Positions 7,673-24,000 of a stretch of 24,000 nucleotides of DNA are shown here, piece after piece. The stretch's first letter is position 1. Each line of letters begins with the position of its first letter. Origin of the DNA: Sulfurimonas sp. (GTDB lineage: Bacteria; Campylobacterota; Campylobacteria; Campylobacterales; Sulfurimonadaceae); contig NZ_JALOAA010000019.1 of NCBI RefSeq assembly GCF_023229025.1, positions 10,736 to 34,735 of the forward strand. Reading direction: 5' to 3'. The notes under the pieces were generated by a model, which saw only the letters and a program-made list of their open reading frames with translations, was not told the origin of the DNA and did no database searches. The translations under genes were made by a program, and so were the position numbers.

Positions 7673-7695
7673 TTAAACCCTCCACTTATATATAG

Positions 7696-8625: not shown

Positions 8626-8641
8626 CTCTTTGTCTCCTTTG

Positions 8642-8812: not shown

Positions 8813-8814
8813 TG

Positions 8815-9087
8815 CTACTCCCTCTCCCTGCACTCTGATATAGAGACAAACTTATCCTCTTTGACAAACTCCTCTCCTTGAATCTTCCACCCTCCTCTTT
8901 TACTTACAAGAAACCTCTCAAACCCTCCTCTGCAAGCAAACTCTTGATTCTCTAAAAAAGCTTTTTTCTTCTCGTCATCATTTAAGCTTGTAATTTCTTT
9001 ATAACCCTCAAGAAGTGCTCCAAACATGAGAGCGAAGATACCGATAATTACAACTGCTACAACTATATTTTCTGCTATCTTTTTCAC
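8815..9087 (-). CDS. small membrane-anchored two-cysteine protein, paralog 2 (90 aa, 1 TM)
   Basis: The N-terminal TM helix is IVVAVVIIGIFALMFGALL. The module KAFLENQEFAC(52)...LVSKRGGWKI..FVKEDKFVSISEC(86) is collinear with paralog 1, including DEK at aa 38-40 and Cys52. The gene overlaps the upstream gene by 4 nt. Confidence 0.65.
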   Translation of the reverse strand: MKKIAENIVVAVVIIGIFALMFGALLEGYKEITSLNDDEKKKAFLENQEFACRGGFERFLVSKRGGWKIQGEEFVKEDKFVSISECRERE

Positions 9088-9476
9088 TCTTTAGGTTCCT
9101 TTAGTTCTTTTGTCTTCTCTGTTGGTTTGGTCTCTTTTAGGAGGATACAACCGCCGATGTAGAGTATATTTTGCTCATGGATAAAGTAGTCACTCTGAAG
9201 CGTAAATCCTTTTGCTTGAGAGATGATTAGTTTTTTCTCATCATCCTCTTTACATAAAAGCTCTTTGTTGTTGTAAAAACCCTCTATGAGGCTCTCTCGT
9301 GTATTTTTAAAATGCACAGAGCCGATGATAACTATAAGAATTGCAAAAAAGCTAAAGTTGAGTATGGAGTCTCTTTTTTTATCATCAAATGAGTAAGGAA
9401 TCGTTGCAAACACTGCAATAACAAGAGAGAGTGCGGCAAGTCCGATTATCTCTGTTAAAGTCAGATGTAAATCCAT
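9084..9476 (-). CDS. small membrane two-cysteine protein, paralog 3 (130 aa, 2 TM, divergent)
   Basis: It has two TM helices (IIGLAALSLVIAVFATI and FSFFAILIVIIGSV). The module follows: EGFYNNKELLC(75)...LIISQAKGF..YFIHEQNILYIGGC(110). A Lys/Glu-rich tail ends the protein. Confidence 0.6.
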   Translation of the reverse strand: MDLHLTLTEIIGLAALSLVIAVFATIPYSFDDKKRDSILNFSFFAILIVIIGSVHFKNTRESLIEGFYNNKELLCKEDDEKKLIISQAKGFTLQSDYFIHEQNILYIGGCILLKETKPTEKTKELKEPKE

Positions 9477-9493
9477 AGTAGTTCTCTTTTTTT

Positions 9494-9577
9494 TTAGAAT
9501 ATTTTGTATGGAAGCGTTGCTATAAACATCAAAGCGCTAAATACAAGAAGTGCAGTTTGGAGATGCTCAGGCATCAT
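9494..9577 (-). CDS. possible 27-aa hydrophobic mini-protein (speculative)
   Basis: I translated this by hand: ATGATGCCTGAG... gives MMPEHLQTALLVFSALMFIATLPYKIF. Its start overlaps the stop of the 142-aa gene (AATGATGCCTGA). It fills most of an otherwise empty 90-nt gap in the operon. No further support is available. Confidence 0.2.
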   Translation of the reverse strand: MMPEHLQTALLVFSALMFIATLPYKIF

Positions 9578-9995
9578 TTTTTAACTCACTTTTATCTTGA
9601 GCGAACTCTGACGAGAGAAACTTCTCTCTTTGGATGATGCAGTACTCCTTGTACCTGCAGATATATCTGCTTGATATTTCTCTCTTGTGCACTCCGCTTA
9701 CCCTATAAAGTCCAAACAGCCAAAAGAGCGAGCTTTTCTTTATAAGCTCTTTTGGGTGCTTGCAGAGAAGCTTTTCATAATCACTCCCCAAAGCGCTGTG
9801 TTCGTTGTAGAGAGTTTGTCTTCCCTCTATGGTATAGATGCCATTCTCATCCAAGGAGAGTGTTGCATCCAAAAATACGCTATGCATCTCTTCATGCCCT
9901 ACATGGTAAAAGCGCTCACCTGCCGGATTTACAAGTATCTCTCTGTTGTGCTCATCTATTAAGATATTTACATTGCTGTAGAGTATTTTTGACAT
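9567..9995 (-). CDS. hypothetical 142-aa protein
   Basis: The ORF comes from the track, within the same-strand operon. It contains HEEMH (aa 34-38), but I recognise no family. Confidence 0.55.
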   Translation of the reverse strand: MSKILYSNVNILIDEHNREILVNPAGERFYHVGHEEMHSVFLDATLSLDENGIYTIEGRQTLYNEHSALGSDYEKLLCKHPKELIKKSSLFWLFGLYRVSGVHKREISSRYICRYKEYCIIQREKFLSSEFAQDKSELKNDA

Positions 9996-10070
9996 TGGCT
10001 CTCCTTGTTTCTTTAGTAGAGTATAATTGTAAGATAGCAGAGTGCGGGCGTTGTTTCGCTCTTTTTATTT

Positions 10071-10568
10071 TTAAAGCTCAAACCTGCTAAGGGTGATGAG
10101 TTTTAGATTTTTATCGCACAGGTTCATCTTCATAGCTATGCGTTTTTTATTGGCGTCTTGCATGATCCAAGTGAGTTTTTTACGCTCAAAGAGTATCTTT
10201 TTGCCGATATCCACAAAGTCGCTGTCTGAGGAGATAAATATAAACTCGTCATACTCTTTAAGGATTCTATAGACGCTCTTTATCTTTGCATCACTATCGC
10301 TCTTATGTGCTACGAGCACTTCAAAGCCGTTCTTTTGCATAGAGATAAGCTTGGAGTGTTTTATGGGGTTGGTAGTTATGATAAATGAACGTTCCGGTGC
10401 GAACTTGAGTGATTGTTTTACTTGTGGAAGATGACTGTAAGGGATGTTCTCCAGATCCCAAAGCAGCACCGCCTTTTCTCTATAGTTGCCGCTTCCCCAT
10501 GTTACCTCTTTTATAACATCTTCATCAACGGCTTGAAAATAGCTCTCAAAACAAAAAAATGAAAACAT
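10071..10568 (-). CDS. NYN-domain (LabA/PIN-like) putative ribonuclease
   Basis: The 165-aa protein matches the NYN signature blocks in order. They are AVLLWDLENIP (D-x-E-N), GFEVLVAHKSDSDAKIK (acidic DA motif) and FIFISSDSDFVDIGKKI (S-x-D-S-D-F). Confidence 0.65.
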   Translation of the reverse strand: MFSFFCFESYFQAVDEDVIKEVTWGSGNYREKAVLLWDLENIPYSHLPQVKQSLKFAPERSFIITTNPIKHSKLISMQKNGFEVLVAHKSDSDAKIKSVYRILKEYDEFIFISSDSDFVDIGKKILFERKKLTWIMQDANKKRIAMKMNLCDKNLKLITLSRFEL

Positions 10569-10575
10569 CTACCCA

Positions 10576-10935
10576 TTACCTCTTTTGCTCGCAGTTTATT
10601 ATTTCTAAAAGCAGATCCTCTTTTTTAAAATAGCTATCCTCATAAACACTCCATCCCTCTTTTATAGAGACAAGATAGTGCTCCTTCTTTTTAAACGCTC
10701 CGGTTTTGCAAATAAAAGTGTTTTCGTCATAAAACGCTCCTCTTTTCTCTTTAATGGTGTTATTGTCATAGAGCGCAAAGAGGTAGGAGAGTATGGTTAC
10801 AAATACAAAGGAGCCCATAAAGATAAAAAGTACAGTCCGCAGTGAAGGTTTCTCGCTCTTTTTTAAAGCCGAGAAGTGTAGCAGCACCAATGCAAAGCCA
10901 AGGATGATTGAGAGTTTAAAGATTTCAAGAGCCAC
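10576..10935 (-). CDS. small membrane two-cysteine protein, paralog 4 (119 aa, 2 TM), first gene of the operon
   Basis: The start codon is GTG. It has two TM helices. The module GAFYDENTFIC(76)...YLVSIKEGWSVY..YFKKEDLLLEIINC(115) nearly duplicates the C-terminal block of paralog 1 (EDLLLEIINC versus DDLLLEIRLC). Confidence 0.65.
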   Translation of the reverse strand: MALEIFKLSIILGFALVLLHFSALKKSEKPSLRTVLFIFMGSFVFVTILSYLFALYDNNTIKEKRGAFYDENTFICKTGAFKKKEHYLVSIKEGWSVYEDSYFKKEDLLLEIINCEQKR

Positions 10936-11109
10936 GCTATCGCCTTCTTCTGTTTTTATAAAAAGTATAAGAAATGCGGGTGAAAGCGTGGTTTCGTTTT
11001 AGTGATACTGCATTATCATATATAAAATGTGGTACAAATAGCCAACTTATTCACACCATTTATGGTATGATTATAGAAAGCAATCACACTATTTACAGGA
11101 AAGAAGATT

Positions 11110-12240
11110 ATGAAACGCTGGATTTGGCAACAAAGTGAGTATCCAAACTTTACCTATGACCTAAAAAGATTAGAGAGTTTGATACAAAAGGTCTCTCTTG
11201 AACAGGGATACTTAATCGCTCTTGCACAAACCATAGATAAAGACAATATCATTCAAAGACGCTTTGAAGCCTTGATGAATGAAGCTATAAACACTTCTGC
11301 CATAGAGGGAGAGATTCTAAACCGCGATAGCGTAAAAGCCTCAATTCAAAAAAAGCTTGGATTCAAAGAGATAAACTATAAAAAAATAGACGAGGCGACA
11401 GATTACCTTATAGAGATACTTATAGATGCAAACAGTAACTATGACAAAGAGTTGAAGCTCGAGAGATTATTTGGTTGGCACAATGCTCTCTTTCCAAAAG
11501 GATACAGTGGATTACGCAAGGTAAATACAGCATCATTTAGAGGCGAAGAGACCATGGAAGTAGTAGGAATAGAGCGCGGCAGAGAGGTGGTTTTTTATGA
11601 AGCACCGCCTAGAGCTAACCTAGAGCATGAGATGCAGAAATTTTTAGATTGGTTCAATGCTGCCGAACCTAGTTTGATCAAAGCCTGCATAGCACATCTT
11701 TGGTTTGTTATAATCCACCCATTTGATGATGGAAACGGAAGACTAGCAAGGGCTATAACGGACTTGGTACTCTCAAAAATAGAAAACTCTAAGATCTCAA
11801 GACTCTACTCTATGTCAAGTGCCATAAACACAGACAGAAAAGGCTATTACAGAGCGCTTGAGCACACTACAGGATATATAAACAAAGAGAGTAATCCTCT
11901 TGATATAACCCATTGGTGCGAGTGGTTTTTATCTACCCTGCATAATGCTCTTATTGACACTAAAAAAAAGCTTGACTATATAGTACAAAAAACAAAGTTT
12001 TGGGATAAACATAAAAACGATGAGCTTAACGCAAGAGAGATAAAAGTACTCAATTTCGTACTCGACATGGGAGCAGAAAATTTCCAAGGAAACTTAAGCA
12101 AAAAGAAGTATATGAGCATTGCAGACACTGCATCGACAAATGCTTCAAGAGACATAGCACAGCTCTTAGAGCTTGGCTGTATAAGACAAAAAGAAGGGAC
12201 TAGCGGAAGAAATACTGCTTATGAGATAATCTTGGATTAG
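11110..12240 (+). CDS. Fic-family protein (AMPylase-type) with an N-terminal inhibitory motif and a C-terminal winged-helix-like region
   Basis: The 376-aa protein has the canonical Fic motif HPFDDGNGRLAR (aa 203-214, nt 11716..11751). The autoinhibitory (S/T)xxxE(G/N) motif TSAIEG lies at aa 62-67 (nt 11293..11310). The N-terminus MKRWIWQQSEYPNFTYD is typical of the DUF4172-type Fic N-terminal extension. Confidence 0.9.
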   Translation: MKRWIWQQSEYPNFTYDLKRLESLIQKVSLEQGYLIALAQTIDKDNIIQRRFEALMNEAINTSAIEGEILNRDSVKASIQKKLGFKEINYKKIDEATDYLIEILIDANSNYDKELKLERLFGWHNALFPKGYSGLRKVNTASFRGEETMEVVGIERGREVVFYEAPPRANLEHEMQKFLDWFNAAEPSLIKACIAHLWFVIIHPFDDGNGRLARAITDLVLSKIENSKISRLYSMSSAINTDRKGYYRALEHTTGYINKESNPLDITHWCEWFLSTLHNALIDTKKKLDYIVQKTKFWDKHKNDELNAREIKVLNFVLDMGAENFQGNLSKKKYMSIADTASTNASRDIAQLLELGCIRQKEGTSGRNTAYEIILD

Positions 12241-12473
12241 CCCTTAACACTCTCTATCTTTTGGCAGATCTCACGCATAACATACTCTAGTTTTTTTGCT
12301 TTATCGTAGTAGTCTAAAAACGGTTCTACCCAGTTTGGGATTACTAAAGGCTTGCCTTCTCTCATTACTCCCCAATTGTTGATTGTTGAATAGGGAACTC
12401 TGCATAATTCGGAGAAATCTTGTTTTGAGATTTCAAGCTCTTTCAACCTTAGAATAAATTGCTCTTTTGTCAT
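12237..12473 (-). CDS. small HTH DNA-binding protein (XRE/Cro-like)
   Basis: The 78-aa protein has an HTH segment ISKQDFSELCRVPYSTINNWG. It is convergent with the Fic gene, and the two 3' ends overlap by 4 nt. Confidence 0.6.
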   Translation of the reverse strand: MTKEQFILRLKELEISKQDFSELCRVPYSTINNWGVMREGKPLVIPNWVEPFLDYYDKAKKLEYVMREICQKIESVKG

Positions 12474-12539
12474 AAAACACCTTTTGTACTATATTTGGAT
12501 AATTTTACCATATAAAATACTAATATAGCAATTTACTTC

Positions 12540-12568
12540 TTGACATAATATGCATATTAGTATATAAT
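12540..12568 (+). promoter_or_regulatory. consensus sigma70-type promoter with a 14-bp palindromic operator in the spacer
   Basis: TTGACA (12540..12545), a 17-bp spacer and TATAAT (12563..12568) are all perfect. The spacer contains the perfect palindrome TAATATGCATATTA (12546..12559). Confidence 0.55.
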
Positions 12569-12608
12569 CTGTTTAATAAATACTATTATAGGATAAAAGG
12601 AGCAACAG

Positions 12609-12722
12609 ATGAGAAAAGCAAAACACTTAGCAAAAGAGTACAGATATACAATCTTTGTACTCACAATAGAGCTTTTGGTGAGTATTACTCAAGCACTGCC
12701 GCTTTTAAGCAGCGCTGCATAA
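12609..12722 (+). CDS. 37-aa mini-ORF: basic N-terminus plus hydrophobic helix (leader peptide or small toxin-like peptide)
   Basis: I translated this by hand: MRKAKHLAKEYRYTIFVLTIELLVSITQALPLLSSAA. It is preceded by AAAAGGAG with a 6-nt spacer and lies ~40 nt downstream of the consensus promoter. It is too short for the supplied ORF track. Confidence 0.35.
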   Translation: MRKAKHLAKEYRYTIFVLTIELLVSITQALPLLSSAA

Positions 12723-12738
12723 TGAAAGGAGTTTTACT

Positions 12739-12999
12739 ATGGCACAAAAATCATACGATAAAGCTCTTTTTAGACTTATCTCCATACTCTCTATGCTCAC
12801 TAAAGACGAAAGACCTACTATCTCATCTTTGGCAGAGGAGTTTAATGTTTCTAAAAGAACTATTCAGACAGATATTTATCAAAGACTCTGTGGCTGGGAT
12901 ATTACTAAAGATAAGCTTGGGAGGCTTGTTTTTAGGGATGGGGTTAATATTTTTGGGGTGACTCGGAAGTTAGGGAGAAAGGGGAAGGAGGTGGTGTGA
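12739..12999 (+). CDS. YafY/WYL-regulator-type N-terminal HTH domain protein, apparently truncated
   Basis: The 86-aa protein begins YDKALFRLISILSMLTKDERPTISSLAEEFNVSKRTIQTDI, matching the HTH_11 head of YafY-like regulators. No WYL domain follows. The last ~25 codons are an atypical G-rich stretch that ends 1 nt from a convergent gene relic. An RBS AAAGGAG lies upstream. Confidence 0.5.
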   Translation: MAQKSYDKALFRLISILSMLTKDERPTISSLAEEFNVSKRTIQTDIYQRLCGWDITKDKLGRLVFRDGVNIFGVTRKLGRKGKEVV

Positions 13000-13000
13000 G

Positions 13001-13140
13001 TCACTTGATTTTACTTTTAATACGCTTTTCTAAAATCTCTTTCCGTTTTTCCCAATACTCATATAAAGAGCTAAATAATCATAAAATTGCTTAGAATGAT
13101 TTGGATAAATAAAATGAACCAGTTCATGAAAAACAACATA
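13001..13140 (-). pseudogene. relic of a DUF45/YgjP-type (M48-like, COG1451) zinc metallopeptidase gene: C-terminal fragment only, frameshifted
   Basis: Manual translation gives YVVFHELVHFIYPNHSKQFYDYLALYM, containing the HExxH...NHS..F signature of the YgjP family. An in-frame TAA lies immediately upstream. The expected C-terminus EYWEKRKEILEKRIKSKIK* continues in a different frame. The fragment is therefore N-terminally truncated and frameshifted. Confidence 0.55.
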
Positions 13141-13208
13141 TTATATGCAAATTTTGGGCTTTTTTATAAGTTGATCTTGGTTCAGTTTAATAATAAATTA
13201 AACCTGAT

Positions 13209-14078
13209 TTAAAACTCATCTACTATGCTCTTTCTTATCTGCTCAAACTCTTCTGGAGTAATCTCCATATCTTCCATAAGCTCTCGGAGTTCTTCTTTGG
13301 CTTGTATATCCTCTTCGCTATCTTTGCTTATGGGGACAAACCCTTTTCCAATTATTCCCAATGATTTTTTATTGTGTTCAGGAACAAGACTTGGGTTATG
13401 TTTTAGACATAAGATATAGATAATGCCTTTTAGCAACTCAAAGGTCTCTTTGGTAGGTTTTATGTCAAAACACGACATGTATTTATACAATCTGTCGTAG
13501 TCTATCTTGTTCATAAAAACACCGGAATCCATATTTTGTTTGAACTCTTGAGCAGGAATTGTGTTCTTAAAAGTGTGATGTTTATTGCGAAGTTTTTTCA
13601 TAGCTTCTTTAACAATTGGTCTATATTTTTTTCTGAAATTGCTTGCGGTGGCATAGTTTGCTTTTTGATTATTTGTACTAAGATTGAACCATATATATGA
13701 ACGCATGAGAATATCTTTGTTGTTGTATTTGTCTGATTCTATTATTCCCATATTGACTCTTTTGTATTGATTTTTTGTAGCGGTCATGATGCCTTTTTCA
13801 AAAGCAGTCTTCCCTTCTTGTTCTGGATCTTTTTGGTTTAGATTGCAAACTTTCTTTTGAACTTTTTGATATGCTTTTTTTATGAAGTTGTCTTTTTTTT
13901 CAGGTGTGTTATCGTGAATAAGATTGATTATTTTTTTAAAAGCATAGTACTCACTTGGATTAAATTCTAAATCTAAAGCCTGCTCACTATGGTTAAGTAT
14001 ATCATCCCTTATTTCATCAAGAAACATTGCAAGATGCTCCTTGTTTAATATGAAACTTTCTCTTTTTTCTTTTATCAT
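13209..14078 (-). CDS. hypothetical 289-aa protein (possible replication/regulatory protein of a small mobile module)
   Basis: This is a long open frame from the track with an acidic C-terminal tail. I recognise no family. The role is suggested only by context: it lies downstream of an HTH_17-like gene and next to an iteron-like repeat field. Confidence 0.6.
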   Translation of the reverse strand: MIKEKRESFILNKEHLAMFLDEIRDDILNHSEQALDLEFNPSEYYAFKKIINLIHDNTPEKKDNFIKKAYQKVQKKVCNLNQKDPEQEGKTAFEKGIMTATKNQYKRVNMGIIESDKYNNKDILMRSYIWFNLSTNNQKANYATASNFRKKYRPIVKEAMKKLRNKHHTFKNTIPAQEFKQNMDSGVFMNKIDYDRLYKYMSCFDIKPTKETFELLKGIIYILCLKHNPSLVPEHNKKSLGIIGKGFVPISKDSEEDIQAKEELRELMEDMEITPEEFEQIRKSIVDEF

Positions 14079-14109
14079 TTTTCTCTCCCATTAAGTGTGT
14101 CAATGTTTT

Positions 14110-14400
14110 TCTGCGAAAACTGCGCCTTGGTTTCCGATACTTATACGAAGTATTTGGAGTGCGTTTCAAAGCGCAGTACTAAATTTTTATCTAATTTGTG
14201 CATTTTTGCGCCTAGCTTTTCGATTTACCTATTTAAAGAAATCCCTATTTTTAGGCAGATTTTGATTGGTAGAAAATGCCAGCGCACTTTTTACTAAATC
14301 TCACTCTACAAATATCCCTATTTTTAGGCACTTTTTATAAAAAGCGCACCAGTGTTTTCGAGTGTTGTATTTTCAAAATATCAAGCGCACTAATGATTAA
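14110..14400. repeat. iteron-like repeat field
   Basis: A 17-bp perfect direct repeat ATCCCTATTTTTAGGCA occurs at 14241..14257 and 14314..14330. The G/C core AGCGCA(C/G) occurs four times in direct orientation (~14171, 14281, 14343, 14385), and two of these copies are followed by TACTAAAT. There are 3-4 inverted copies (TGCGC or GTGCG near 14121, 14159, 14207). All of this sits in otherwise very AT-rich DNA. Confidence 0.45.
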
Positions 14401-14434
14401 TATTTTTACAATTTCCCATTCAAAATCCTTTTTT

Positions 14435-14668
14435 TTAAACAACTTTTTGATTGTTGTTCAATATATAATCTACAACTGTATCAATTGGATACTCCACAGA
14501 TGCATTCTTCGATTTGCCACGTTTTTTATATTCCAAGTACAGTCCTTGCTTCTTCCAGCGGTCAATTGTCGCAACCGACTTATTTAGAGCTTGTGCAGCT
14601 TGTTTCCGTGAAAGTAAAAGAGTGTCAAATTTCTGATAGATTAAACCCCTAGCTTCTTGTTTAGTCAT
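14435..14668 (-). CDS. HTH_17/excisionase-like (MerR-superfamily) small DNA-binding protein
   Basis: The 77-aa protein has the segment LLLSRKQAAQALNKSVATIDRWKKQG, which fits the Xis/AlpA-type helix-turn-helix. The size is typical of that family. Confidence 0.55.
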   Translation of the reverse strand: MTKQEARGLIYQKFDTLLLSRKQAAQALNKSVATIDRWKKQGLYLEYKKRGKSKNASVEYPIDTVVDYILNNNQKVV

Positions 14669-14885
14669 GTGTCTTCTCCAGTTTTTAAGTGTGTATTAGT
14701 AGCTACTTGAAGACATTATATTGCAGTAAAAAATAAAAGAAAAGTCCAAAAATGAAGGAGTAAACGGCAGATGTAGCTATATGTAATTATTTGAAATCAT
14801 ATGTATTTATATGTAAAATTTGGTGAATTTGTATAAATTTTCATAGTTGCTTCAGAAGGTAACAACTATGAAAAAAGTAGGTAAA

Positions 14886-17800
14886 TTATTTTGTATGTGT
14901 AAGCTCTTCGGCAATCATCTCAGCCTGCTTCAAAACAGTTTCCGTAGCCAACATTTGCATATCTGGTGGATAACCAAACTGTCTCAGAGTTCGTTTTACT
15001 ATTACTTTTAGTTTTGAGCGAACGCTCTCTTTAATGGTCCAGTCTATACTTGCATTTTCTCTTACTCTTTGTGTAAGTACGACTGCCAACTCTCGTAAGA
15101 TTTCTTTTTCCATAAGCTCTTTTGCACTGTCGTTATTAGCAACTGCGGTATAAAAAGCATACTCAAAATCAGATAAACCCATCTCTTTGGGCTCTTCATC
15201 CATCTGATGAATATCTTTTGCCAGTTTCATAAGCTCATCAATTACTTCAACAGCAGTGATGATTTTATTGTGATATTTTTTAATAGAGCTTTCCAACATC
15301 TCCATAAGAGATTTACTCTGAACTAGATTAGTTTTCATGCGAGTTTTTATCTCATCATTGAGTAGTTTTTTCAGCACTTCAAGAGCGATATTTTTATGTT
15401 TCATCCCTTGAACTTCCATTAGGAACTCTTCAGAAAGTATAGAAATATCAGGCTTTTTAATCCCAGAGGCATCAAATATATCTATAACTTGCTCTGTTAC
15501 AAGTGCTTTATCTATAACTTGTCTTATGGTGGTTTCCATCTCTTCATCTGTTTTGCCAGGACCACCGCCATCAAACTTAACAAGTCGTGCTTTTACAGCT
15601 TGAAAGAAAGAGATTTCATCTTTAACATCCATAGCTTCTTCATGGGGAACTGCTATTGCGAAAGCTTGTGATAATGCAGTCACTTCACCAATGTATCTTT
15701 TCTTACCATCTTCAAGCCCTAATATATGTTCTTCAGCTTCAAGTATAAGCGATAACTTTTGTCTCGTGTCTGCTTGAAAATAATCCTCATAAGCAAATCC
15801 ATGATACATTTGAGAAACTACTTCTAACTTTTCAAGCATAAGGGCTACGGCTTGCTCTTGAGCCAAAGCGGGATCACCTTTTCCGCCACTATCACTATAA
15901 AAAGAAAGAGCCTTTTTCAAGTCACTAGCAATCCCTAGATAATCAACAACAAGTCCGGCTGGTTTGTCTTTATAAACTCTATTTACCCTTGCTATGGCTT
16001 GCATAAGGTTATGACCTTTCATTGGTTTATCTATGTAGAGTGTGTGCATAGATGGTGCATCAAATCCAGTAAGCCACATATCTCTAACAATGACAAGTTT
16101 TAGCTCATCACTAGTATCTTTCATACGATTAGCTAAATCTCTTCTTTGTTGCTTGGTTGTATGATGTTTAGCCATATCTGGACCATCACTTGAACTCGCT
16201 GTCATGATAACTTTAATAACACCTTTGTCTAAGTCATCATTATGCCACTCAGGCTTAAGTGCAATTATCTCTTTGTAAAGCTCAGTTGCAATTCTTCTAC
16301 TCATAGAAACAATCATACCTTTACCATCAAATACTTCTTGTCTCTTTTCAAAGTGAGCGACTATATCATTTGCCACTTCTTTTATTCTATTTTTACTACC
16401 TATAAGAGCTTCAAGTTGAGTCCATTTTGCTTTTGCTTTTTGGGTATCGTTTAAGTCATCATTTTTTATCTCGCTATCTAGTTCTTTAACAAGCTCTTTA
16501 CCCTCATCACTAAGTTGTATCTTAGCAAGTCGGCTTTCATAGTAAATCTTAACAGTAGCACCATCTTCAACAGCTTGTGAAATATCATAAATATCTACAT
16601 AATCACCAAATACAGCAGGTGTATTGACATCACTACTCTCTATTGGTGTACCAGTAAATCCAAGATAGGTAGCATTTGGTAAGGCATCCCTTAGATACTT
16701 TGCAAAACCATAAACGATTCTTTTACCAATAACATTTCCGTCTTTATCTTTTTCATCAACAGTTTTTGGTTTAAATCCATACTGAGTACGGTGTGCTTCA
16801 TCGGCTAGAACTATGATGTTTCGTCTATCTGAAAGTTCATCATAGATATTTCCCTCTTCGGGTTGAAACTTTTGGATAGTGGCAAATATAACCCCACCCG
16901 AAGCTACTTTGAGAAGTTTCTTAAGATGATCTCTATCTTCTGCTTGAATAGGTTCTTGTCGCAGAAGTGAAGCAGAACTTGCAAAGGTATCAAATAGTTG
17001 GTCATCTAAATCATTTCTATCTGTGATAATAAGGATTGTAGGATTATTTAAACTCAATACTATCTTACCCGTATAGAAAACCATAGAAAGTGATTTACCA
17101 CTTCCTTGTGTATGCCAAACGACACCACCTTTTTTATCTCCATCTTCTGCACTTGCTTTTGTAGTTCTCTCAACAGCTTTATTTACTGCATAGTACTGAT
17201 GATAAGCAGCTAGTTTTTTAACAGTCTCTATAGTAGTTATACCAGTCTTACTATCTTCTTTTGTGCTTTTCTCATAAACGATAAAGTTACGGATTAAATC
17301 TAAAAGAGTGATTGGGTTTAACATACCAGTTATCATAGTTTCAACTTGAGATATTAACTTAGAAGCTTCACTTTTACCATCACTACTTTTCCAAGACATA
17401 AATCTTGTTAGACCAGCTGATATAGTTCCTGCTTTTGCTTCTAAGCCATCACTTATAATACAAAAAGCATTGTAAGTAAAAAGAGATGGGATAACACTTT
17501 TATAAGTCTGTATTTGCTTGTATGCAGAACCAACAGTTGCATTTTCATCTATTGGATTTTTAAGCTCAATTATTACAAGAGGTAAGCCATTTACAAAGAG
17601 GATTAAATCTGGTCGTTTATTGATACCATTTTCTATGATAGTAAATTGGTTTGATACTACAAAGTCATTTTTAGATATATCATCAAAATCTACAAGTTTA
17701 ACTATTTCACCACGAGTGACACCATCCTTTTGCACTTCAACAGTTATACCCTCTGTAAGCATTTTATGAAAAGTTTCATTATCTGTTAAAAGTTCTGTTG

Positions 17801-18035
17801 TTCTTAGTCTCTGGCATTGTTTTACAGCATATTCTATTTGGTTGTATTCTAAAGTAGCGTTTATAGCAGTAAGTGAGTTTGTGAGTTTTTCTTTGAGTAT
17901 CACATCTTCAAAAGATTCTCTGAGAGGAGTTTCACTATCAGGTGCTATATTTGGAGCATAGATATATTCAAAGCCTTGTTTTTCTAAAAGCTTTATAGCA
18001 AAAAGTTCTATTTCATTTTCTGTTATTTTAGTCAT
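14886..18035 (-). CDS. hsdR: type I restriction enzyme R subunit
   Basis: The protein is 1049 aa. It has a PD-(D/E)xK nuclease motif RPDLILFVNGLPLVIIELKNP. The SF2 helicase motifs are HTQGSGKS, DEAH (LADEAHRTQ, nt 16791..16802), FTGTP and QAIARVNR. The start ATG overlaps the stop of the upstream gene (ATGA). Confidence 0.95.
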   Translation of the reverse strand: MTKITENEIELFAIKLLEKQGFEYIYAPNIAPDSETPLRESFEDVILKEKLTNSLTAINATLEYNQIEYAVKQCQRLRTTELLTDNETFHKMLTEGITVEVQKDGVTRGEIVKLVDFDDISKNDFVVSNQFTIIENGINKRPDLILFVNGLPLVIIELKNPIDENATVGSAYKQIQTYKSVIPSLFTYNAFCIISDGLEAKAGTISAGLTRFMSWKSSDGKSEASKLISQVETMITGMLNPITLLDLIRNFIVYEKSTKEDSKTGITTIETVKKLAAYHQYYAVNKAVERTTKASAEDGDKKGGVVWHTQGSGKSLSMVFYTGKIVLSLNNPTILIITDRNDLDDQLFDTFASSASLLRQEPIQAEDRDHLKKLLKVASGGVIFATIQKFQPEEGNIYDELSDRRNIIVLADEAHRTQYGFKPKTVDEKDKDGNVIGKRIVYGFAKYLRDALPNATYLGFTGTPIESSDVNTPAVFGDYVDIYDISQAVEDGATVKIYYESRLAKIQLSDEGKELVKELDSEIKNDDLNDTQKAKAKWTQLEALIGSKNRIKEVANDIVAHFEKRQEVFDGKGMIVSMSRRIATELYKEIIALKPEWHNDDLDKGVIKVIMTASSSDGPDMAKHHTTKQQRRDLANRMKDTSDELKLVIVRDMWLTGFDAPSMHTLYIDKPMKGHNLMQAIARVNRVYKDKPAGLVVDYLGIASDLKKALSFYSDSGGKGDPALAQEQAVALMLEKLEVVSQMYHGFAYEDYFQADTRQKLSLILEAEEHILGLEDGKKRYIGEVTALSQAFAIAVPHEEAMDVKDEISFFQAVKARLVKFDGGGPGKTDEEMETTIRQVIDKALVTEQVIDIFDASGIKKPDISILSEEFLMEVQGMKHKNIALEVLKKLLNDEIKTRMKTNLVQSKSLMEMLESSIKKYHNKIITAVEVIDELMKLAKDIHQMDEEPKEMGLSDFEYAFYTAVANNDSAKELMEKEILRELAVVLTQRVRENASIDWTIKESVRSKLKVIVKRTLRQFGYPPDMQMLATETVLKQAEMIAEELTHTK

Positions 18036-18661
18036 TTTGAATCACTTAAAACTTGAACTAGTTCGATACAACAAAAATTATTTGTTAAAAAATAAAACAT
18101 TAACATCGAAATAACTACAATGACAAATAGGAAACTAAGAGGTAGTTTGTCTTTCCACAAAGTTAAATTTAATTGTTTTTCGACCCAATTTATATGTTTT
18201 CTCCACTGCCAAAAAAATTTATAATGTGCATACCAATCACTAAAAAGTATCTGTTTACTAATAGATTTTGAGTAAAACTGATCTTCAATGGTTTTCAATT
18301 TCTCTTTTGCTTCATCAAACTGATCATCATCTAACTTTGCTTTAACTTCATAATATAGTTCTTTCAAGGAATTAAAATGTTTTGTAATTTCACTCCCAGC
18401 TTCAGAATAATCTTTTTTAGTATCATTGTATGATGATATATAAATACCAACAATACCAAAAATAACTAATGTTGCAGAAATATTTTTTAATGTAAAAAAC
18501 TCGATATATAGCGATAAAATTCCAATTGCTATCGATGCAAAACTGATAATTCCTGGTAGTTTCTCAATCATATCGAATGTTGCAAAATGCTTTTTCGCTC
18601 CAAAACCGACATTATATGCACTTTCTGCAATCTGTTGCAATAAATTTTCTTTTGTCATCAA
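18032..18661 (-). CDS. SLATT-like membrane effector (2 central TM helices plus a C-terminal TM)
   Basis: The track ORF is 209 aa and starts at TTG 18661. An ATG at 18658 gives 208 aa. The N-terminal block AESAYNVGFGAKKHFATFDMIEKLPG is followed by two closely spaced TM helices (IISFASIAIGILSLYIEFF and ATLVIFGIVGIYISSY), as I recall for SLATT-family proteins. It sits immediately downstream of, and overlaps, a SMODS-type NTase gene. Confidence 0.65.
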   Translation of the reverse strand: MMTKENLLQQIAESAYNVGFGAKKHFATFDMIEKLPGIISFASIAIGILSLYIEFFTLKNISATLVIFGIVGIYISSYNDTKKDYSEAGSEITKHFNSLKELYYEVKAKLDDDQFDEAKEKLKTIEDQFYSKSISKQILFSDWYAHYKFFWQWRKHINWVEKQLNLTLWKDKLPLSFLFVIVVISMLMFYFLTNNFCCIELVQVLSDSK

Positions 18662-19956
18662 TATTTCCCCTTTTCATCAATTGGAACATGAACTCTATCT
18701 TTGGCAACAACTATATTGTTTTTAACGATATAACACTCTACTACATGATCACCTGAAAACTTTGTAGTTTCATTTTTAATTTTATATCCCTTGATAATTT
18801 GTCCTCTTATTTCATCTCTTTGTTTTGCTTCTTCCCCACGATTCAAAACTTTCCAATAAATATCATATTTACCGGGTGTTTCATTGTCAATAATTTTAAA
18901 AATTAAATTGTAATTTGGAGATAGAGTTTCTTTCTTTAGAAGCATATTTAATAAGTTCGTTAAAGGGACGGTATCAGATTTTACTTCTGAATCTATCGTT
19001 AAATCATATCTAATATCTACATTAAACATATCTTCTATGAATTCTTCAGTATTTCTCCAACTTAACATTGAAGTATCAGCAGATTCTGTTGTTACTTTCA
19101 TTGATGATGGAAAGTCTCTTCCAAATATTTTTTTCCATTTTTGATTTGCATTTTTATTTTCTTGCGCATCAATTGCTTCTAAAACAAGGTTATGTGCTTT
19201 TTTTGCCTTGGTTTGAAATTTTTTCTTTATATAAACTTTCTGATTACTTCCAGGAGCAAATACATGATTTGTATTTTGTAATTCAGACAAATACTTTAAG
19301 AAATCTCTTGTCATCCAATCATAATATGTATAGCTTTTATCATCATATTCTGTAGTTGAGTTTAAATAATTATAAGCTATACTATCTATCAATAAACCTC
19401 CCATTGCCACACCATGATAGTTTTTCCATGATCTAAGCATCTTGCATAATGGTCTTAAATTATTATTTTTACTTGAATGCAGTTCAGATATTGCTTTCTT
19501 TTCTTCTCTGGGTTTTGTAGTTTTCCAACTACCTCCATTGTTAGTGTCTGGATAATAAAAACTTCCATCCTCAAACTCAAATGCAGGTAAAACCTCAATT
19601 TGATAATTGGAGAAAGAAATCACTACAACTTGTCCATCTCCTCTCATATTAGTATTTTGGTATCTTGATTGAATAGTTTTTTTTACTTCTTGTAATAATG
19701 CAGATTGTCTACCATCTTTGAATCTTTCGTATTCAGCCCACGGTAAGATATAAATCATATCCAAATCAGATATACTTTTTATTGCAGTATATCTGCCATA
19801 TGAACCAACCTGCAAGCTGTTGGATGTTTTTGAGTCAGATGAACGATATTTTTGATTTAATACTCTTGTTATTTCCCCATATCTTTTGCTAATCTGTTCT
19901 TTATTATCTACTTCTAGATTATTAAGAAAATCTTGAAAAGTTTGAGATACATTCAT
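18658..19956 (-). CDS. SMODS-type (CD-NTase-like) nucleotidyltransferase with an AGS-C-like C-terminal domain
   Basis: The protein is 432 aa. It has an intact Pol-beta NTase signature: G51-S52 (VGSYGRYTAIKSIS), D64-L-D66 (nt 19759..19767) and a third acidic residue E121 (QIEVLPAF). The helical PAP/OAS-like core follows (GGSWKTTKP...LCKMLRSWKN). The C-terminal ~130 aa contain YWKVLNRGEEAKQRDEIRGQI...FSGDHVVECYIVKNNIVVAKDRVHVPI, which resembles the SMODS-associated AGS-C sensor domain. Confidence 0.75.
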   Translation of the reverse strand: MNVSQTFQDFLNNLEVDNKEQISKRYGEITRVLNQKYRSSDSKTSNSLQVGSYGRYTAIKSISDLDMIYILPWAEYERFKDGRQSALLQEVKKTIQSRYQNTNMRGDGQVVVISFSNYQIEVLPAFEFEDGSFYYPDTNNGGSWKTTKPREEKKAISELHSSKNNNLRPLCKMLRSWKNYHGVAMGGLLIDSIAYNYLNSTTEYDDKSYTYYDWMTRDFLKYLSELQNTNHVFAPGSNQKVYIKKKFQTKAKKAHNLVLEAIDAQENKNANQKWKKIFGRDFPSSMKVTTESADTSMLSWRNTEEFIEDMFNVDIRYDLTIDSEVKSDTVPLTNLLNMLLKKETLSPNYNLIFKIIDNETPGKYDIYWKVLNRGEEAKQRDEIRGQIIKGYKIKNETTKFSGDHVVECYIVKNNIVVAKDRVHVPIDEKGKY

Positions 19957-19986
19957 ACAATCATTCCTATGTTTTATAATTTTTTA

Positions 19987-20517
19987 CTAGTTGTTTTGAA
20001 ATTCATCTTCATAAAATATCTCTTGCCAATTTTTTTGTAAAATATCCCAAACTACACTATCAACATGAAAATGAGGGTCAACTCCCACATAACTTTTTTT
20101 GATGTATCCTCTTGCCATTAAAGTTTTTACAGGCTTTGGTGTTTGCAAACTTTCAAATTCTATTCCAAGATTTGAAGTTTGAGTTTTATTCCCTAAAAAA
20201 TGAGCTAAGATAAATTTTTCATCTAATGACAAATTACTCAATACTTCAATAAAATCATTAGTCGCCTGATCTAAACCTCTTTTATTCTTAAACCAATTAA
20301 ATAGCCTTGAAATAAGATTTAGTATTGTTATGACACCTGAAATAAGTGTTACAATACCAATATAAGTTCCATATTGAGTAATAAACTCTTGCAGATAAAA
20401 AAGTTCTCTTATTTTATTTCCTGATAATATTAAAAACAACCCACTAATAAATAAAATCCAAGCTATTTTATACACAGAACCAAATAGCTTCAAAAAATCA
20501 GTTATATTAAAGTTCAT
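19987..20517 (-). CDS. 2-TM membrane protein, SieB-like (superinfection exclusion B family) by architecture
   Basis: The 176-aa protein has two N-terminal TM helices (IAWILFISGLFLILS and YIGIVTLISGVITILNLI). The soluble tail has the LSNLSLDEKFILAHFL...VKTLMARGYIKK pattern that I associate with SieB-family proteins. The family call is from memory only. The start ATG overlaps the hsdS stop (ATGA). Confidence 0.5.
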   Translation of the reverse strand: MNFNITDFLKLFGSVYKIAWILFISGLFLILSGNKIRELFYLQEFITQYGTYIGIVTLISGVITILNLISRLFNWFKNKRGLDQATNDFIEVLSNLSLDEKFILAHFLGNKTQTSNLGIEFESLQTPKPVKTLMARGYIKKSYVGVDPHFHVDSVVWDILQKNWQEIFYEDEFQNN

Positions 20518-21692
20518 ATTTTCACCCTCACTTCCCCACTCATAAGCTTAGGTAAAAGTGTATCTCTTATATTTTCAAGGGTTTCTATCTGTTTTTGATT
20601 TTGTACTGTTTTCAAATAGTTGGGTTCTAATAATTTTGAGAATTCTTTTATCTTATCAACTGATGGAGTTAAAAAATTTATATTTAATATATCTTCAGGC
20701 TTTACTCTTTGATGGCTTCCACTTGTACCAGAGGCAGACATTGTCAAATCACCAATAACTTTATCTGATTTTAAAAGTGTTGATATGAAAGGGAAAAGCT
20801 CTTTTTCATTTGGTTGTATTACTTGAAACTCAGTAGAACAAATTGAATTTACTTTAGGTTCAAAGTAAATATCCCATACTCTTGGAGTTTTTGGATTTAG
20901 TTTTGACATTAAAATTGAAAAAGGTTCTACTTGATATTTATTACTTTTAATATCTGAACCTAACTCAACATTAGGTTCTTTATTTGTATCAAAAGCAGGT
21001 AAACTAAAATGTAAAAACTCTTCATTAGGATTTTGTGCAGGTTTAATGCTCACTTTTTGATGGGTAGCAAAATCACTTACTGTATATTCTTCCCACTTAT
21101 CCTCAGCTTCTTCAATAAACCATTGTCTAAAAAGTGTTTGTGCTAACTCTTCAAGGGTTTTGTTTTGGCGGTGGAGGAGGTCGATTTTATCATCAAGTGA
21201 GCTTAGAGCTTCTGCTATTGCTTTTTGTTCTTCAATTGTCGGAAGTAATAAATCAAAACTAGCAAATTGTTTTGCATTTGCTCCTGGTTGTGCTGAACCA
21301 CCAATAATTCCTTCAACAAAACCATCCCATTCATAAGATTGTAGACAATATGCTACAAAATATGGATTGGCTATTTTTGAATTTATTCTATATCTTATTA
21401 AGTATGAAGCAAAAACTGCATTTTCATTTTTTGTAATTAATTTATTATATCCCGTTGTTGCACCAGTTCTAGCGATTACAATATCACCAAACGAAAGCAT
21501 ATACTTATCTTTTTTACCATCATCAATCAAACAATAAGGCACAGTATCCCAATTAATTCTATCTGGAACAATATCAGTTATTCTTAAAAATTTTGGTCCG
21601 CATTCTTCTTGACTTGCACTAGCAGTATATCCATAAGAAATATCTGTACTAATTTCACCTAATGTAGTATTTAACCACTCACTCATCAACAA
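20514..21692 (-). CDS. hsdS: type I restriction-modification specificity subunit
   Basis: The protein is 392 aa. Two target-recognition domains (the first beginning LGEISTDISYGYTASAS...FLRITDI) are separated by the conserved helical spacer LDDKIDLLHRQNKTLEELAQTLFRQWF. The protein ends with the matching C-terminal helix QKQIETLENIRDTLLPKLMSGEV. The gene overlaps hsdM by 14 nt. Confidence 0.9.
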   Translation of the reverse strand: MLMSEWLNTTLGEISTDISYGYTASASQEECGPKFLRITDIVPDRINWDTVPYCLIDDGKKDKYMLSFGDIVIARTGATTGYNKLITKNENAVFASYLIRYRINSKIANPYFVAYCLQSYEWDGFVEGIIGGSAQPGANAKQFASFDLLLPTIEEQKAIAEALSSLDDKIDLLHRQNKTLEELAQTLFRQWFIEEAEDKWEEYTVSDFATHQKVSIKPAQNPNEEFLHFSLPAFDTNKEPNVELGSDIKSNKYQVEPFSILMSKLNPKTPRVWDIYFEPKVNSICSTEFQVIQPNEKELFPFISTLLKSDKVIGDLTMSASGTSGSHQRVKPEDILNINFLTPSVDKIKEFSKLLEPNYLKTVQNQKQIETLENIRDTLLPKLMSGEVRVKI

Positions 21693-23250
21693 CTACCTTT
21701 GCCAAGTTCTCATTGATTCTCTGATTGAGTGCTTGTTCCTCTTCCATCTGCTCTTTTAGTTCTTGTTGTAGAGTTGCAAATCTCTCTCTAAAATCAAACT
21801 CATCATCTACCTCTTCAAGCCCTACATATCGCCCAGGGGTTAGTACATAGTTTAACTCTTTTACCGTGTCTTGCGAGGCTGATTTACAAAACCCTTTTAT
21901 ATCTTCATATTGTGGGACTGAAGTCCCACTTCCGATAGAGGGATTTGGAGGTGGGACTTTAGTCCCACTTTTGGAAACTTTCCAGTTGTGATAAACCTTA
22001 GCTATATAGTCTGTATCTTCGTGACTAAACTCTTTTGTTCGTCTGTTTATAAGTTGCCCCATATTTCGAGCGTCTATAAAAAGTATATCTTTGGTGCTTC
22101 TTCCCCTTTTCATAAACCAGATAGTTGCTGGGATTTGCGTATTTAAAAACAGTTTTGCAGGGAGATTCACTATACAGTCAACTAAGTTAGCTTCTATAAG
22201 CGCTTTTCTTATCTCTCCCTCATTTGATGTGTTAGAGGTAAGGCTTCCTTTTGCTAGTACAAATCCGGCACGACCTGTTGGGGCTAAGTGATATAAAAAG
22301 TGTTGTATCCAAGCATAGTTTGCATTGCCCTCTGGTGGTGTTCCATATTTCCATCTTCCATCATTTCGTAGTAGGTCACCGCTCCAGTCACTGACATTAA
22401 AAGGTGGATTTGCGATGATAAAGTCTGCTTTGAGATCTTTGTGGGCATCATTTAGAAATGAACCTTCATTGTTCCACTTTACTTGTGAGCTATCTATTCC
22501 TCTAATGGCAAGATTCATTTTAGCCAGTCGCCATGTAGTTTGGTTTGACTCTTGTCCGTAGATAGATATATCGTTTATCTTCCCTTGGTGCTCTGTCACA
22601 AACTTTTCAGATTGTACAAACATACCACCACTACCACAACAAGGATCAAAGACTCTCCCTTTATATGGCTCTAACATCTTTACAAGAAGTTCAACTACAC
22701 TTTTTGGAGTATAGAACTGCCCACCTTGTTTACCCTCAGCAAGTGCAAACTCACCTAAGAAATACTCAAACACATGACCAAGCACATCAGCACTTCTAGC
22801 TTTTGCATCGCCAAAGGCAATGTTACCTATAAGGTCGATTAGACCTCCTAGAGATTTACTATCAAGATTATCTTTTGCAAATACTTTAGGTAGCACACCT
22901 TTTAAAGAGCTATTTTCTTTTTCTATAGCATCCATAGCCTCATCAACAATCTTTCCTATGCTTGGTAACTTAGCATTTGAAAGAAGAAATGACCATCTAG
23001 CAGTAGGAGGAACAAAAAATACATTCTCTGCTTTGTACTCATCCATATCTTCAGGGTCAGCCCCTGCATATTCACCTTCACCAGCTTCAAGCTTATTATA
23101 AAGTTCAAGAAAACTATCAGAAATATACTTTAAAAATACAAGCCCCATCACCACATGCTTATACTCTGCGGCATCTATATTTTTTCGTAGTTTATCGGCT
23201 GCTTTCCATAGTTGTTTTTCTATTGATTCTTCTTGTTTTGCTTTTGCCAT
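21679..23250 (-). CDS. hsdM: type I restriction-modification N6-adenine DNA methyltransferase subunit
   Basis: The protein is 523 aa. It has the HsdM N-terminal helix domain (LWKAADKLRKNIDAAEYKHVVMGLVFLKYISD). SAM-binding motif I is FDPCCGSGGMF and catalytic motif IV is NPPF (nt 22399..22410). The C-terminal block is YEDIKGFCKSA...YVLTPGRYVG. Confidence 0.95.
   Translation of the reverse strand: MAKAKQEESIEKQLWKAADKLRKNIDAAEYKHVVMGLVFLKYISDSFLELYNKLEAGEGEYAGADPEDMDEYKAENVFFVPPTARWSFLLSNAKLPSIGKIVDEAMDAIEKENSSLKGVLPKVFAKDNLDSKSLGGLIDLIGNIAFGDAKARSADVLGHVFEYFLGEFALAEGKQGGQFYTPKSVVELLVKMLEPYKGRVFDPCCGSGGMFVQSEKFVTEHQGKINDISIYGQESNQTTWRLAKMNLAIRGIDSSQVKWNNEGSFLNDAHKDLKADFIIANPPFNVSDWSGDLLRNDGRWKYGTPPEGNANYAWIQHFLYHLAPTGRAGFVLAKGSLTSNTSNEGEIRKALIEANLVDCIVNLPAKLFLNTQIPATIWFMKRGRSTKDILFIDARNMGQLINRRTKEFSHEDTDYIAKVYHNWKVSKSGTKVPPPNPSIGSGTSVPQYEDIKGFCKSASQDTVKELNYVLTPGRYVGLEEVDDEFDFRERFATLQQELKEQMEEEQALNQRINENLAKVVVDE
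21912..21968. repeat. twin perfect hairpins GTGGGAC-N4-GTCCCAC inside the hsdM coding sequence
   Basis: The first hairpin is GTGGGAC tgaa GTCCCAC at 21912..21929. The second is GTGGGAC ttta GTCCCAC at 21951..21968. The segment is locally G/C-rich and is translated in frame as SGTKVPPPNPSIGSGTSVP. Confidence 0.7.
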
Positions 23251-23652
23251 ATTTTGTATACTCTTATCATTAAAATTTATTTCTTTTTATTTTAGCGAAA
23301 CTTGATGACATTTGACTTTATTTACTAAGCATTTAAGATTTGAGTATAAAGTTCTCTTATGGGTGATAAAAAATATCTTGCATTGGAACCGTAAGATAAA
23401 ATGCAAGAGGTTACTAACATTTACACATAGTGACCTGAAATAGATAATGGGCTTTTAATTCTTTAGCTTGTTACACAAGTTGAGTATTATAGTCAAGTAG
23501 TGTAGCTAAGTACTTTTAGCATTTAGCGAATAGATGTTGCGCAACAGAACTGAATAAACGATTAATGTTGATTTAGACGAAATGAAATAAATGCATAATC
23601 AGTTAATAATAATTGATTCATAAACAATAGAAGAGACAACTAGCACTTTTAA

Positions 23653-24000
23653 GTGTTTATAAACAAGCAAATAGGCCATTTGAATGTTTTGCGACCAAAA
23701 AGTGACTCTCAAATTTGGACTTTTCTCTTTATGAGAAAACTCTCTAGTCACATCGTAGATTTTTTTCAAGTTATAACGAAATATTTGGTGAGACCTCAGA
23801 TAATTGAGATTTCGAACAAAAGACTTTTAACGAGACAAGAGTTTGCAGTTTTTTTTGGTAGATCCACTGGCTGGGTTTATACAAACGTAGAAAAAGGAGG
23901 TACTTTGGTAAAAGGAGTACATGTTTTTGAATTCTGCGGTGTGACACTCTATGATAGAGAACAAATAGAAACTGATATAATATCAGGCTTAATTAAGTAA
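23653..24000 (+). CDS. HTH_17/excisionase-like DNA-binding protein (start uncertain)
   Basis: The track ORF is 115 aa from a GTG at 23653. An in-frame ATG at 23731 would give 89 aa. The C-terminal part LLTRQEFAVFFGRSTGWVYTNVEKGG...LYDREQIE fits the Xis/AlpA-type HTH. The stop codon occupies the last 3 nt of the window. Confidence 0.5.
   Translation: MFINKQIGHLNVLRPKSDSQIWTFLFMRKLSSHIVDFFQVITKYLVRPQIIEISNKRLLTRQEFAVFFGRSTGWVYTNVEKGGTLVKGVHVFEFCGVTLYDREQIETDIISGLIK

Follow-up and report, generated by a model that had tools for sequence, protein, structure and literature searches.

Three genes of defence type lie between hsdS and hsdR of a type I restriction-modification (R-M) operon in a Sulfurimonas sp. 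genome. The stretch analysed, called the window in the following, comprises 24,000 nucleotides of contig NZ_JALOAA010000019.1 (positions 10,736 to 34,735). The position of these genes raises the question if they form one module which is wired to the R-M enzyme, as was put forward in the original prediction made from the sequence, or if they are separable passengers of the operon. We favour, with a probability of roughly 0.78, a composite defence operon, in which an intact type I R-M frame carries two independent passenger modules in the hsdS-hsdR slot. The first module is a gene of the SieB family (open reading frame ORF176), the second a predicted cyclic oligonucleotide-based antiphage signalling system (CBASS) encoded by ORF432 and ORF209. 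The six ORFs run in the order hsdM-hsdS-ORF176-ORF432-ORF209-hsdR, all on the minus strand; positions are those of the window.

21679..23250, minus strand: hsdM, methyltransferase subunit of the type I R-M system, 523 aa (Pfam N6_Mtase 3.7e-108, HsdM_N 8e-25)
20514..21692, minus strand: hsdS, specificity subunit, 392 aa (Pfam Methylase_S in two stretches, 1.2e-17)
19987..20517, minus strand: ORF176, SieB-family gene, 176 aa (PF14163, 2e-15)
19957..19986, minus strand: spacer of 30 nt with an AGGA ribosome-binding site 5' of the ATG of ORF432 (direct reading)
18658..19956, minus strand: ORF432, nucleotidyltransferase of the cGAS/DncV type (CD-NTase), 432 aa (Pfam SMODS 7e-48, AGS_C 1.7e-41)
18032..18661, minus strand: ORF209, SLATT_6 membrane effector, 209 aa (Pfam SLATT_6 4e-65)
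14886..18035, minus strand: hsdR, restriction/translocase subunit, 1049 aa, apparently intact (Pfam HSDR_N, SWI2_SNF2/ResIII, T1R_D3-like, T1RH-like_C)

The coding regions of hsdM and hsdS overlap by 14 nt when hsdS starts at its TTG, and by 8 nt with the alternative ATG two codons further on. ATGA overlaps are found between hsdS and ORF176 and between ORF209 and hsdR, and ORF432 and ORF209 meet in a TTGA or in a 1-nt TGATG overlap, which is preceded by AAGGGG. Read directly from the ORFs and the sequence, the gene order and all junctions are exactly as originally described. The type I set is complete, consisting of HsdM, HsdS with two target recognition domains (TRDs) and HsdR with nuclease, SF2 motor and C-terminal domain. 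These ORFs are full length, and so are the three passengers ORF176, ORF432 and ORF209.

The CD-NTase/SLATT_6 pair and its distribution

ORF432 matches the CBASS cyclase profile PDLC00796 of PADLOC over its full length (5.5e-182, profile positions 1-428 of 432). The SMODS/CD-NTase catalytic core comprises aa 1-158 (about nt 19483-19956), and an AGS-C domain is located at aa 301-426 (about nt 18679-19056). The catalytic residues G51, S52, D64, D66 and E121, whose retention had been claimed before, are invariant across 58 aligned homologues. The AlphaFold model (pLDDT 70) contains two domains. Its N-terminal fold matches solved CD-NTases, with CdnD (6p8u, E 4.8e-9) followed by DncV, CdnE and cGAS, and the C-terminal part, which is all-beta at aa 319-426, matches the AGS-C domain of EcPycC (9ard, E 1.9e-3, TMt 0.55). 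A sequence search of the PDB revealed no solved structure of the CD-NTase clade of ORF432; the best matches are CdnC/CdnD-type entries (1e-11). The score of 118 against the NCBIfam model CBASS_cyclase_b is below the equivalog cut-off of 200, so ORF432 is no equivalog of that model. One Sulfurimonas sp. protein is 100% identical to ORF432. The identity to E. coli homologues is 55% for strain PM22 and 44% over the full length for strain ATCC 11775, in which the protein is encoded beside a SLATT gene and the pair adjoins a Qat system.

ORF209 reaches SLATT_6 scores of 219 bits in Pfam (cut-off 27) and 253 bits in NCBIfam (cut-off 100) and corresponds to the PADLOC CBASS '2TM' effector PDLC00695 (4.4e-81, profile positions 2-193 of 195). 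Its hydropathy profile displays a transmembrane (TM) hairpin with segments at aa 31-49 and 53-71 and a C-terminal hydrophobic helix. The original prediction regarded this helix as an extra of ORF209; it is a family trait, common to 54 of 55 homologues. In 55 other loci, too, the CD-NTase is accompanied by a SLATT_6 effector. Every ORF from hsdM to hsdR is accounted for, and genes for Cap2/Cap3 (E1-E2/JAB), HORMA and TRIP13 are absent from the operon. The pair is therefore assigned to Type I CBASS, and from its domains and folds it is predicted to be a standard two-gene system of that kind. The profile searches in Pfam, PADLOC and NCBIfam thus place ORF432 in the SMODS/CD-NTase clade with an AGS-C domain and ORF209 in the SLATT family, and they also confirm the earlier SieB call for ORF176.

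Homologous CD-NTases were surveyed with one genome per species, which gave 80 loci encoding proteins 50-76% identical to ORF432 (loci of this survey and of the SieB-like genes below are numbered with the prefix L). The window proteins served as queries for scoring, and 47 loci had adequate flanking DNA. In 21 of the 47 (about 45%) the pair has hsdM/hsdS upstream and hsdR downstream, all on one strand. Another 25 are stand-alone with no hsd genes nearby, and one (L057) has hsdMS upstream and no hsdR downstream despite adequate flanks. Ten further loci on truncated contigs have hsd genes on the one visible side. Embedding on both sides is seen in Campylobacterota, Thermodesulfobacteriota, Pseudomonadota, Verrucomicrobiota, Cyanobacteriota and Lentisphaerota, and Bacillota, Spirochaetota and Chlorobiaceae are represented in addition among the one-sided cases. 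Overlap of the cyclase ATG with the hsdS stop is seen in many loci, where the effector gene also adjoins or overlaps hsdR. Other passengers which share the slot in CBASS-bearing hsd operons are Schlafen-AlbA_2 ATPases, GmrSD, DUF1016/YhcG, RhuM, DprA-like and HerA-like proteins.

Such a distribution could be expected if the embedded CBASS was wired to the type I enzyme like PrrC. The system would then be triggered once restriction is overwhelmed or inhibited, for instance by anti-restriction proteins of the Ocr/ArdA type, and failure of R-M would lead to abortive infection. We consider this improbable. It is true that the hsdS-hsdR position is identical to that of prrC, that 21 of the 47 scorable loci from at least six phyla are embedded and 11 more have hsd genes on one side (the truncated contigs and L057), that the start of the CD-NTase gene often overlaps the hsdS stop, and that the Ig-like AGS-C domain is a candidate protein-binding surface (10.1101/2023.05.21.541620). 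However, more than half of the scorable loci are stand-alone, and none of these 25 copies has hsd fragments beside it. A neighbour-joining tree shows embedded cyclases interspersed among stand-alone ones, and sister CD-NTases with different embedding have identities of 64-91.5%. The hsd operons which carry the CBASS come from divergent type I families (E-values of HsdR from 0 to 1e-15), and unrelated cargo occupies the same slot. Tree interleaving, differing sister pairs, clean stand-alone flanks and divergent hsd hosts together indicate that the pair often enters and leaves type I operons and is not dependent on them. Stand-alone E. coli relatives, the EcCdnF04-SLATT6 and EcCdnF05-SLATT6 systems, defend their host alone (10.1101/2023.05.21.541620), and these together with the 25 stand-alone homologues speak for autonomy of the CBASS. 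The suggested cross-talk with the R-M complex thus finds no support in a clade of which about half is stand-alone and close sisters differ in embedding. It was also considered whether hsd fragments flank the stand-alone CBASS copies and serve their mobility; this was rejected, as 0 of 25 copies have such fragments.

The SieB-family gene and cargo turnover in the slot

SieB of the phages lambda and P22 is a prophage-encoded abortive superinfection-exclusion protein. ORF176 scores 57.1 bits against the corresponding family PF14163 (cut-off 26). Two N-terminal hydrophobic helices (residues 13-31 and 51-69) agree with the two TM segments originally proposed. The AlphaFold2 model (pLDDT 79.5) shows, besides the TM hairpin, a long helix and, at the C-terminus, a small alpha/beta domain, which resembles the winged helices of MarR, CodY and TubR (PDB, E about 0.03). 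Among viral models (BFVD), Q38660 of P22 ('initial portion of N operon', from the SieB region) gives the best match, which is weak (E 1.4e-2, TMq 0.46). The alignment to lambda SieB by hhalign is weak as well, with 2.9% probability, but collinear, and the identity is about 14-19%. A profile of the subfamily found 301 representatives among 1.84 billion proteins, and all 41 relatives that were sampled, lambda SieB among them, match PF14163, so that membership in the family is sound. Searches with ORF176 gave no PHROG match and, by tblastn, no phage-genome match, and the gene resides in an R-M operon and not in a prophage. PADLOC v2.0.0 contains no convincing model for this subfamily (best PDC-S47, E 0.017). 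By analogy to the family, ORF176 may act as a membrane-level exclusion or abortive-infection factor.

Close homologues of ORF176 are few (24 clusters, 46-75% identity), and a metagenome scan with the SieB-like alignment found four loci only. The gene directly follows hsdS with overlapping stop and start in the window, L091, L081-87, L089, L090 and L092; the contig of L088 starts just upstream of the SieB-like gene. What comes next varies. A CBASS follows in the window and in L091, and a cassette of TIR_2, ThsB_TIR and SLATT_1 genes in L081-84, L090 and L106-107, which is decayed in L103-104 (ThsB_TIR truncated). RhuM follows in L085. In L088 (708-2189) and L089 (861-2342) a protein of 493 aa, unmatched in Pfam and PADLOC, precedes a DUF6088/AbiEii pair and then hsdR; AbiEii is split in two in L088. 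More distant SieB-like genes are found directly upstream of DUF2971 and a type III mod/res pair (L099-102), after an MmeI_C fragment (L105) and between RhuM and a UvrD-like helicase (L093, L097-98), and ORF6N also belongs to the SLATT-free cargo near such genes. As the following cargo differs between loci, the SieB-like gene belongs with R-M operons and not with CBASS. Members of the subfamily accompany R-M operons of both type I and type III, and in this Campylobacterota lineage the gene travels with the hsdS 3' end.

Some of these neighbouring genes deserve a remark of their own. The TIR_2, ThsB_TIR and SLATT_1 cassette, located at 793-2749 in L082, is possibly a TIR-signalling/SLATT system akin to the Thoeris-like ones; its SLATT_1 protein has no match in PADLOC v2. 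The 493-aa protein of L088 and L089 is an unannotated embedded candidate. The type III-linked loci L099 (9001-16134) and L101 (1230-9038) encode in each case a SieB-like protein, DUF2971 (PDC-S31), an N6_N4_Mtase methyltransferase and a ResIII/RE_endonuc protein, with RhuM or a Pol-beta nucleotidyltransferase in between.

A further alternative starts from the frequent placement of the CD-NTase clade between hsdS and hsdR. In it the AGS-C domain might read the state of the R-M complex or of anti-restriction proteins, the CBASS would be a guardian like PrrC and, jointly, the SieB-family protein would be a membrane-tethered accessory of type I and type III R-M operons. We give it little credence. 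If true, the SieB-family protein with its two TM segments and winged helix would be a previously unrecognised accessory of R-M operons.

It was originally assumed that the SieB-like protein, the CD-NTase and SLATT_6 form one three-gene unit, and the first of them could serve as sensor, anchor or second effector of it. The genes are indeed adjacent in the window and in L091, and both of the commonest cargos behind the SieB-like gene end in a SLATT gene (SLATT_6 here, SLATT_1 in L082-84 and L106-107). Nevertheless, a single system of three genes is very unlikely. A SieB-like gene accompanies the CD-NTase in 0 of the 80 other surveyed loci, and at least five other kinds of cargo follow its homologues. 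Among these, AbiE, RhuM, DUF2971 with type III R-M, UvrD and ORF6N are free of SLATT. When loci with different cargo are aligned, their DNA homology ends exactly at the junction of the SieB-like gene and the cargo. The two modules are separable.

The breakpoints themselves are well visible in the DNA alignments. Between the window and L082 the homology (79%) covers the 3' end of hsdS and the SieB-like gene, halts at the SieB-like stop codon and returns exactly at the hsdR ATG (88%); it likewise returns at the hsdR ATG in L088. In loci with other cargo (L082, L085 and L088) the homology ends at the SieB-like 3' end, about 10 nt upstream of the 30-nt spacer. The spacer at 19957..19986 is the upstream border of the CBASS cassette; in L091 it differs at a single position, immediately 5' of the CD-NTase ATG. 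Of the relatives, L091 is the nearest, with 91.6% DNA identity over 2.56 kb from hsdS through SLATT_6. It diverges 18 nt before the SLATT_6 stop and continues with another SLATT_6 C-terminus, a spacer and a Schlafen-AlbA_2/HATPase_c_4 gene. As L091 differs from the SLATT_6 3' end onward, the ATGA fusion of ORF209 and hsdR is a recent and variable state. The view that the insert is hard-wired by obligatory coupling is therefore not supported. Stop/start overlaps are ordinary in operons, and the stoichiometric expression put forward originally finds no support either.

Scars of cargo exchange are found in other relatives. In L082 (2742-2835) and L083 (3847-3940) the SLATT_1 stop is directly followed by a second copy, 94 bp long, of the hsdR 5' end (89% identity to window positions 17942-18035), and then come RhuM and the real hsdR. 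This suggests that cargo cassettes were exchanged using the hsdR start as an anchor. In L085 (about 7390-7440) around 40 bp of the TIR_2 gene 5' end (GTGTCTAGTTTACAATTT) are left after the SieB-like stop and precede RhuM; judged from its sequence, this stub is a deletion remnant of TIR-TIR-SLATT_1 cargo. A repeat search found no direct or inverted repeats bounding the insert in the window. The alignments thus portray the hsdS-hsdR slot as a cassette exchanger between related strains, and the survey of homologous hsd loci, which had been recommended to assess the variability of the insert, bears this out by the differing cargo of relatives.

The proposed composite operon and its surroundings

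In the composite operon which we favour, transcription would start upstream of hsdM, and translation may be coupled through the gene overlaps. The type I enzyme would restrict unmodified DNA, and the passengers would act as back-up layers without input from it. The SieB-family membrane protein would provide an independent exclusion or abortive layer. The CD-NTase with its Ig-like AGS-C domain would be held inactive until infection and would then produce a cyclic nucleotide. This signal would activate SLATT_6, so that the inner membrane is permeabilised and the infection is aborted. The slot would be attractive to passengers as a location which is permissive for recombination, co-inherited and co-expressed. 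An abortive-infection layer carried by a type I R-M operon, already part of the original prediction, fits into this picture.

Several points weigh against it or at least limit it. The evidence on the locus comes from sequence and from predicted structures. No obvious Shine-Dalgarno sequence of its own is present in front of hsdR in the window, and its translation may depend on ORF209 in this operon. A promoter and terminator scan of positions 14300-23800 gave 39 matches, compared to 39.7 expected from shuffled sequence, and is uninformative on internal promoters; co-transcription is for this reason only assumed from the gene overlaps. The embedding rate of the CD-NTase clade, 45%, is high and could mean a functional tie to type I R-M. 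Finally, the role of ORF176 is deduced from family analogy. A reading of the passengers as inert hitch-hikers, or as genes in decay at a recombination hotspot, with no defence role in this strain, is hardly credible: decay does occur in relatives (ThsB_TIR in L103/104, AbiEii in L088, a CD-NTase of reduced length in L036 and a split SLATT_6 in L015 and L068), but the window ORFs are intact in length, match their family profiles from end to end and retain all catalytic residues.

Seen in this way, the locus would be a natural example of layered immunity in one operon, consisting of restriction, a membrane exclusion protein and a CBASS suicide system. Each part is of a known kind, and defence genes in type I R-M operons are an already published theme. 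The informative points are the recurrent R-M embedding of the CD-NTase clade, the R-M-linked SieB subfamily and the visible scars of cassette swaps. The clade of CD-NTase-AGS-C proteins with SLATT_6 is embedded far more often than expected for a free-standing system, which provides a set of loci to study synergy of R-M and CBASS or guardian behaviour. The R-M-linked SieB subfamily of Campylobacterota is an embedded defence candidate for which a convincing PADLOC model is missing. Neither the embedding rate nor the SieB linkage alters current concepts.

The GC content is 0.28-0.29 over the passengers and hsdS (window 17500-21000), in comparison to 0.35-0.39 in hsdR and hsdM. Such a dip would fit cargo and specificity regions that were exchanged horizontally. 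At the DNA level hsdM is 82-87% identical to hsdM of L081 and L085, and for hsdS the match to relatives is confined to the central and 3' conserved regions, a pattern typical of TRD swapping. Two perfect 18-nt palindromes (GTGGGACTNNAGTCCCAC) are located within hsdM at 21912-21929 and 21951-21968, in the segment 21909-21979. They are in frame and encode SGTKVPPPNPSIGSGTSVP. None are expected by chance, and hsdM of L085 does not contain the segment of about 60 nt. It looks like a small hairpin-repeat insertion which is tolerated in the coding sequence.

The surroundings of the operon (window 1-14700 and 23653-24000) resemble a variable island. No Rfam match and no tRNA was found anywhere in the window. 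The following genes were identified there:

1511-2074: resolvase
3872-5701: DnaJ-domain protein
6386-7672: Sel1-repeat protein
10071-10568: NYN-domain protein
11110-12240: DUF4172-Fic protein
14435-14668: small ORF flanking the operon, HTH_23 match below threshold
23653-24000: small ORF flanking the operon, no Pfam match, helix-turn-helix (HTH)-like by eye

Downstream of the small HTH gene which comes after hsdR, a 30-nt direct repeat (14234-14263 and 14307-14336, 83% identical, 73 nt apart) was noticed, which could be a candidate binding site of a regulator.

Comparison with known systems

Embedded defences are known from PrrC (EcoprrI) and from RloF of Campylobacter jejuni (rlo genes), which are reviewed or cited in PMC12707154 and PMC11411939. 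The precedent of Campylobacter hsd loci carrying passenger ORFs, to which the original prediction referred, is hence real. TgvAB of V. cholerae VPI-2 occupies the hsdS-hsdR slot (PMC11411939), as does DarTG2 in enteropathogenic E. coli, for which the site was suggested as a potential recombination hotspot and defence-system site (PMC12255303). A systematic 'guilt-by-embedding' survey is also available (10.1101/2024.01.29.577857). The window resembles PrrC, rlo, TgvAB and DarTG2 in slot, orientation, tight junctions and variable cargo, and differs from them in the cargo itself, which is a CBASS together with a SieB-family gene. A guardian of PrrC type would be expected essentially in type I R-M operons only and under the control of the R-M complex; in contrast, 25 of 47 scorable CD-NTase loci stand alone without hsd remnants. 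The literature search, which did not extend to Burroughs et al. 2015 and Millman et al. 2020, found no paper on a CBASS or a SieB-family gene in the hsdS-hsdR slot, and the supplements of Payne et al. do not mention CBASS, SieB or SLATT.

With SieB of lambda and P22 ORF176 shares the family PF14163, a similar size (176 versus 184-195 aa), the N-terminal TM hairpin and the motif 'L(S/T)xxEKxIL'; the similarity of profile and fold is weak but collinear. It differs in being encoded in a chromosomal R-M operon and not in a prophage.

For the CBASS pair the nearest experimental parallels are EcCdnF04-SLATT6 and EcCdnF05-SLATT6, two Type I CBASS with AGS-C fusions which restrict diverse phages alone in E. 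coli (Richmond-Buccola et al., 10.1101/2023.05.21.541620). SMODS-SLATT pairs are hence no longer known from comparative genomics only, as the original prediction had it. The same study reports the Ig-like AGS-C domain in about 40% of Type I CBASS cyclases and states that for clade F no in vitro product was previously observed (10.1101/2023.05.21.541620). The window pair agrees with both systems in having two genes, a fusion of SMODS/CD-NTase and Ig-like AGS-C, a SLATT_6 effector and no accessory Cap genes. This likeness is one of architecture, and the placing of ORF432 in clade F is tentative. The pair differs from these systems by its place inside a type I R-M operon and after a SieB-like gene.

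The closest counterpart in layout is E. coli PM22 (NZ_CP074019), with the order hsdM-hsdS-DUF2188-NTase-SLATT-hsdR-M48. It has the same CBASS pair (at the 55% identity given above) in the same slot and likewise a small extra gene after hsdS. This gene encodes DUF2188 (PADLOC PDC-S16, 3e-36) and is not SieB-like, and the hsd family differs as well. The DUF2188 gene is found between hsdS and the CD-NTase gene at 8689-8922 in L094, which is the PM22 locus, and at 9750-9989 in L049. In gammaproteobacterial embedded CBASS it thus occupies the position which the SieB-like gene has in the window.

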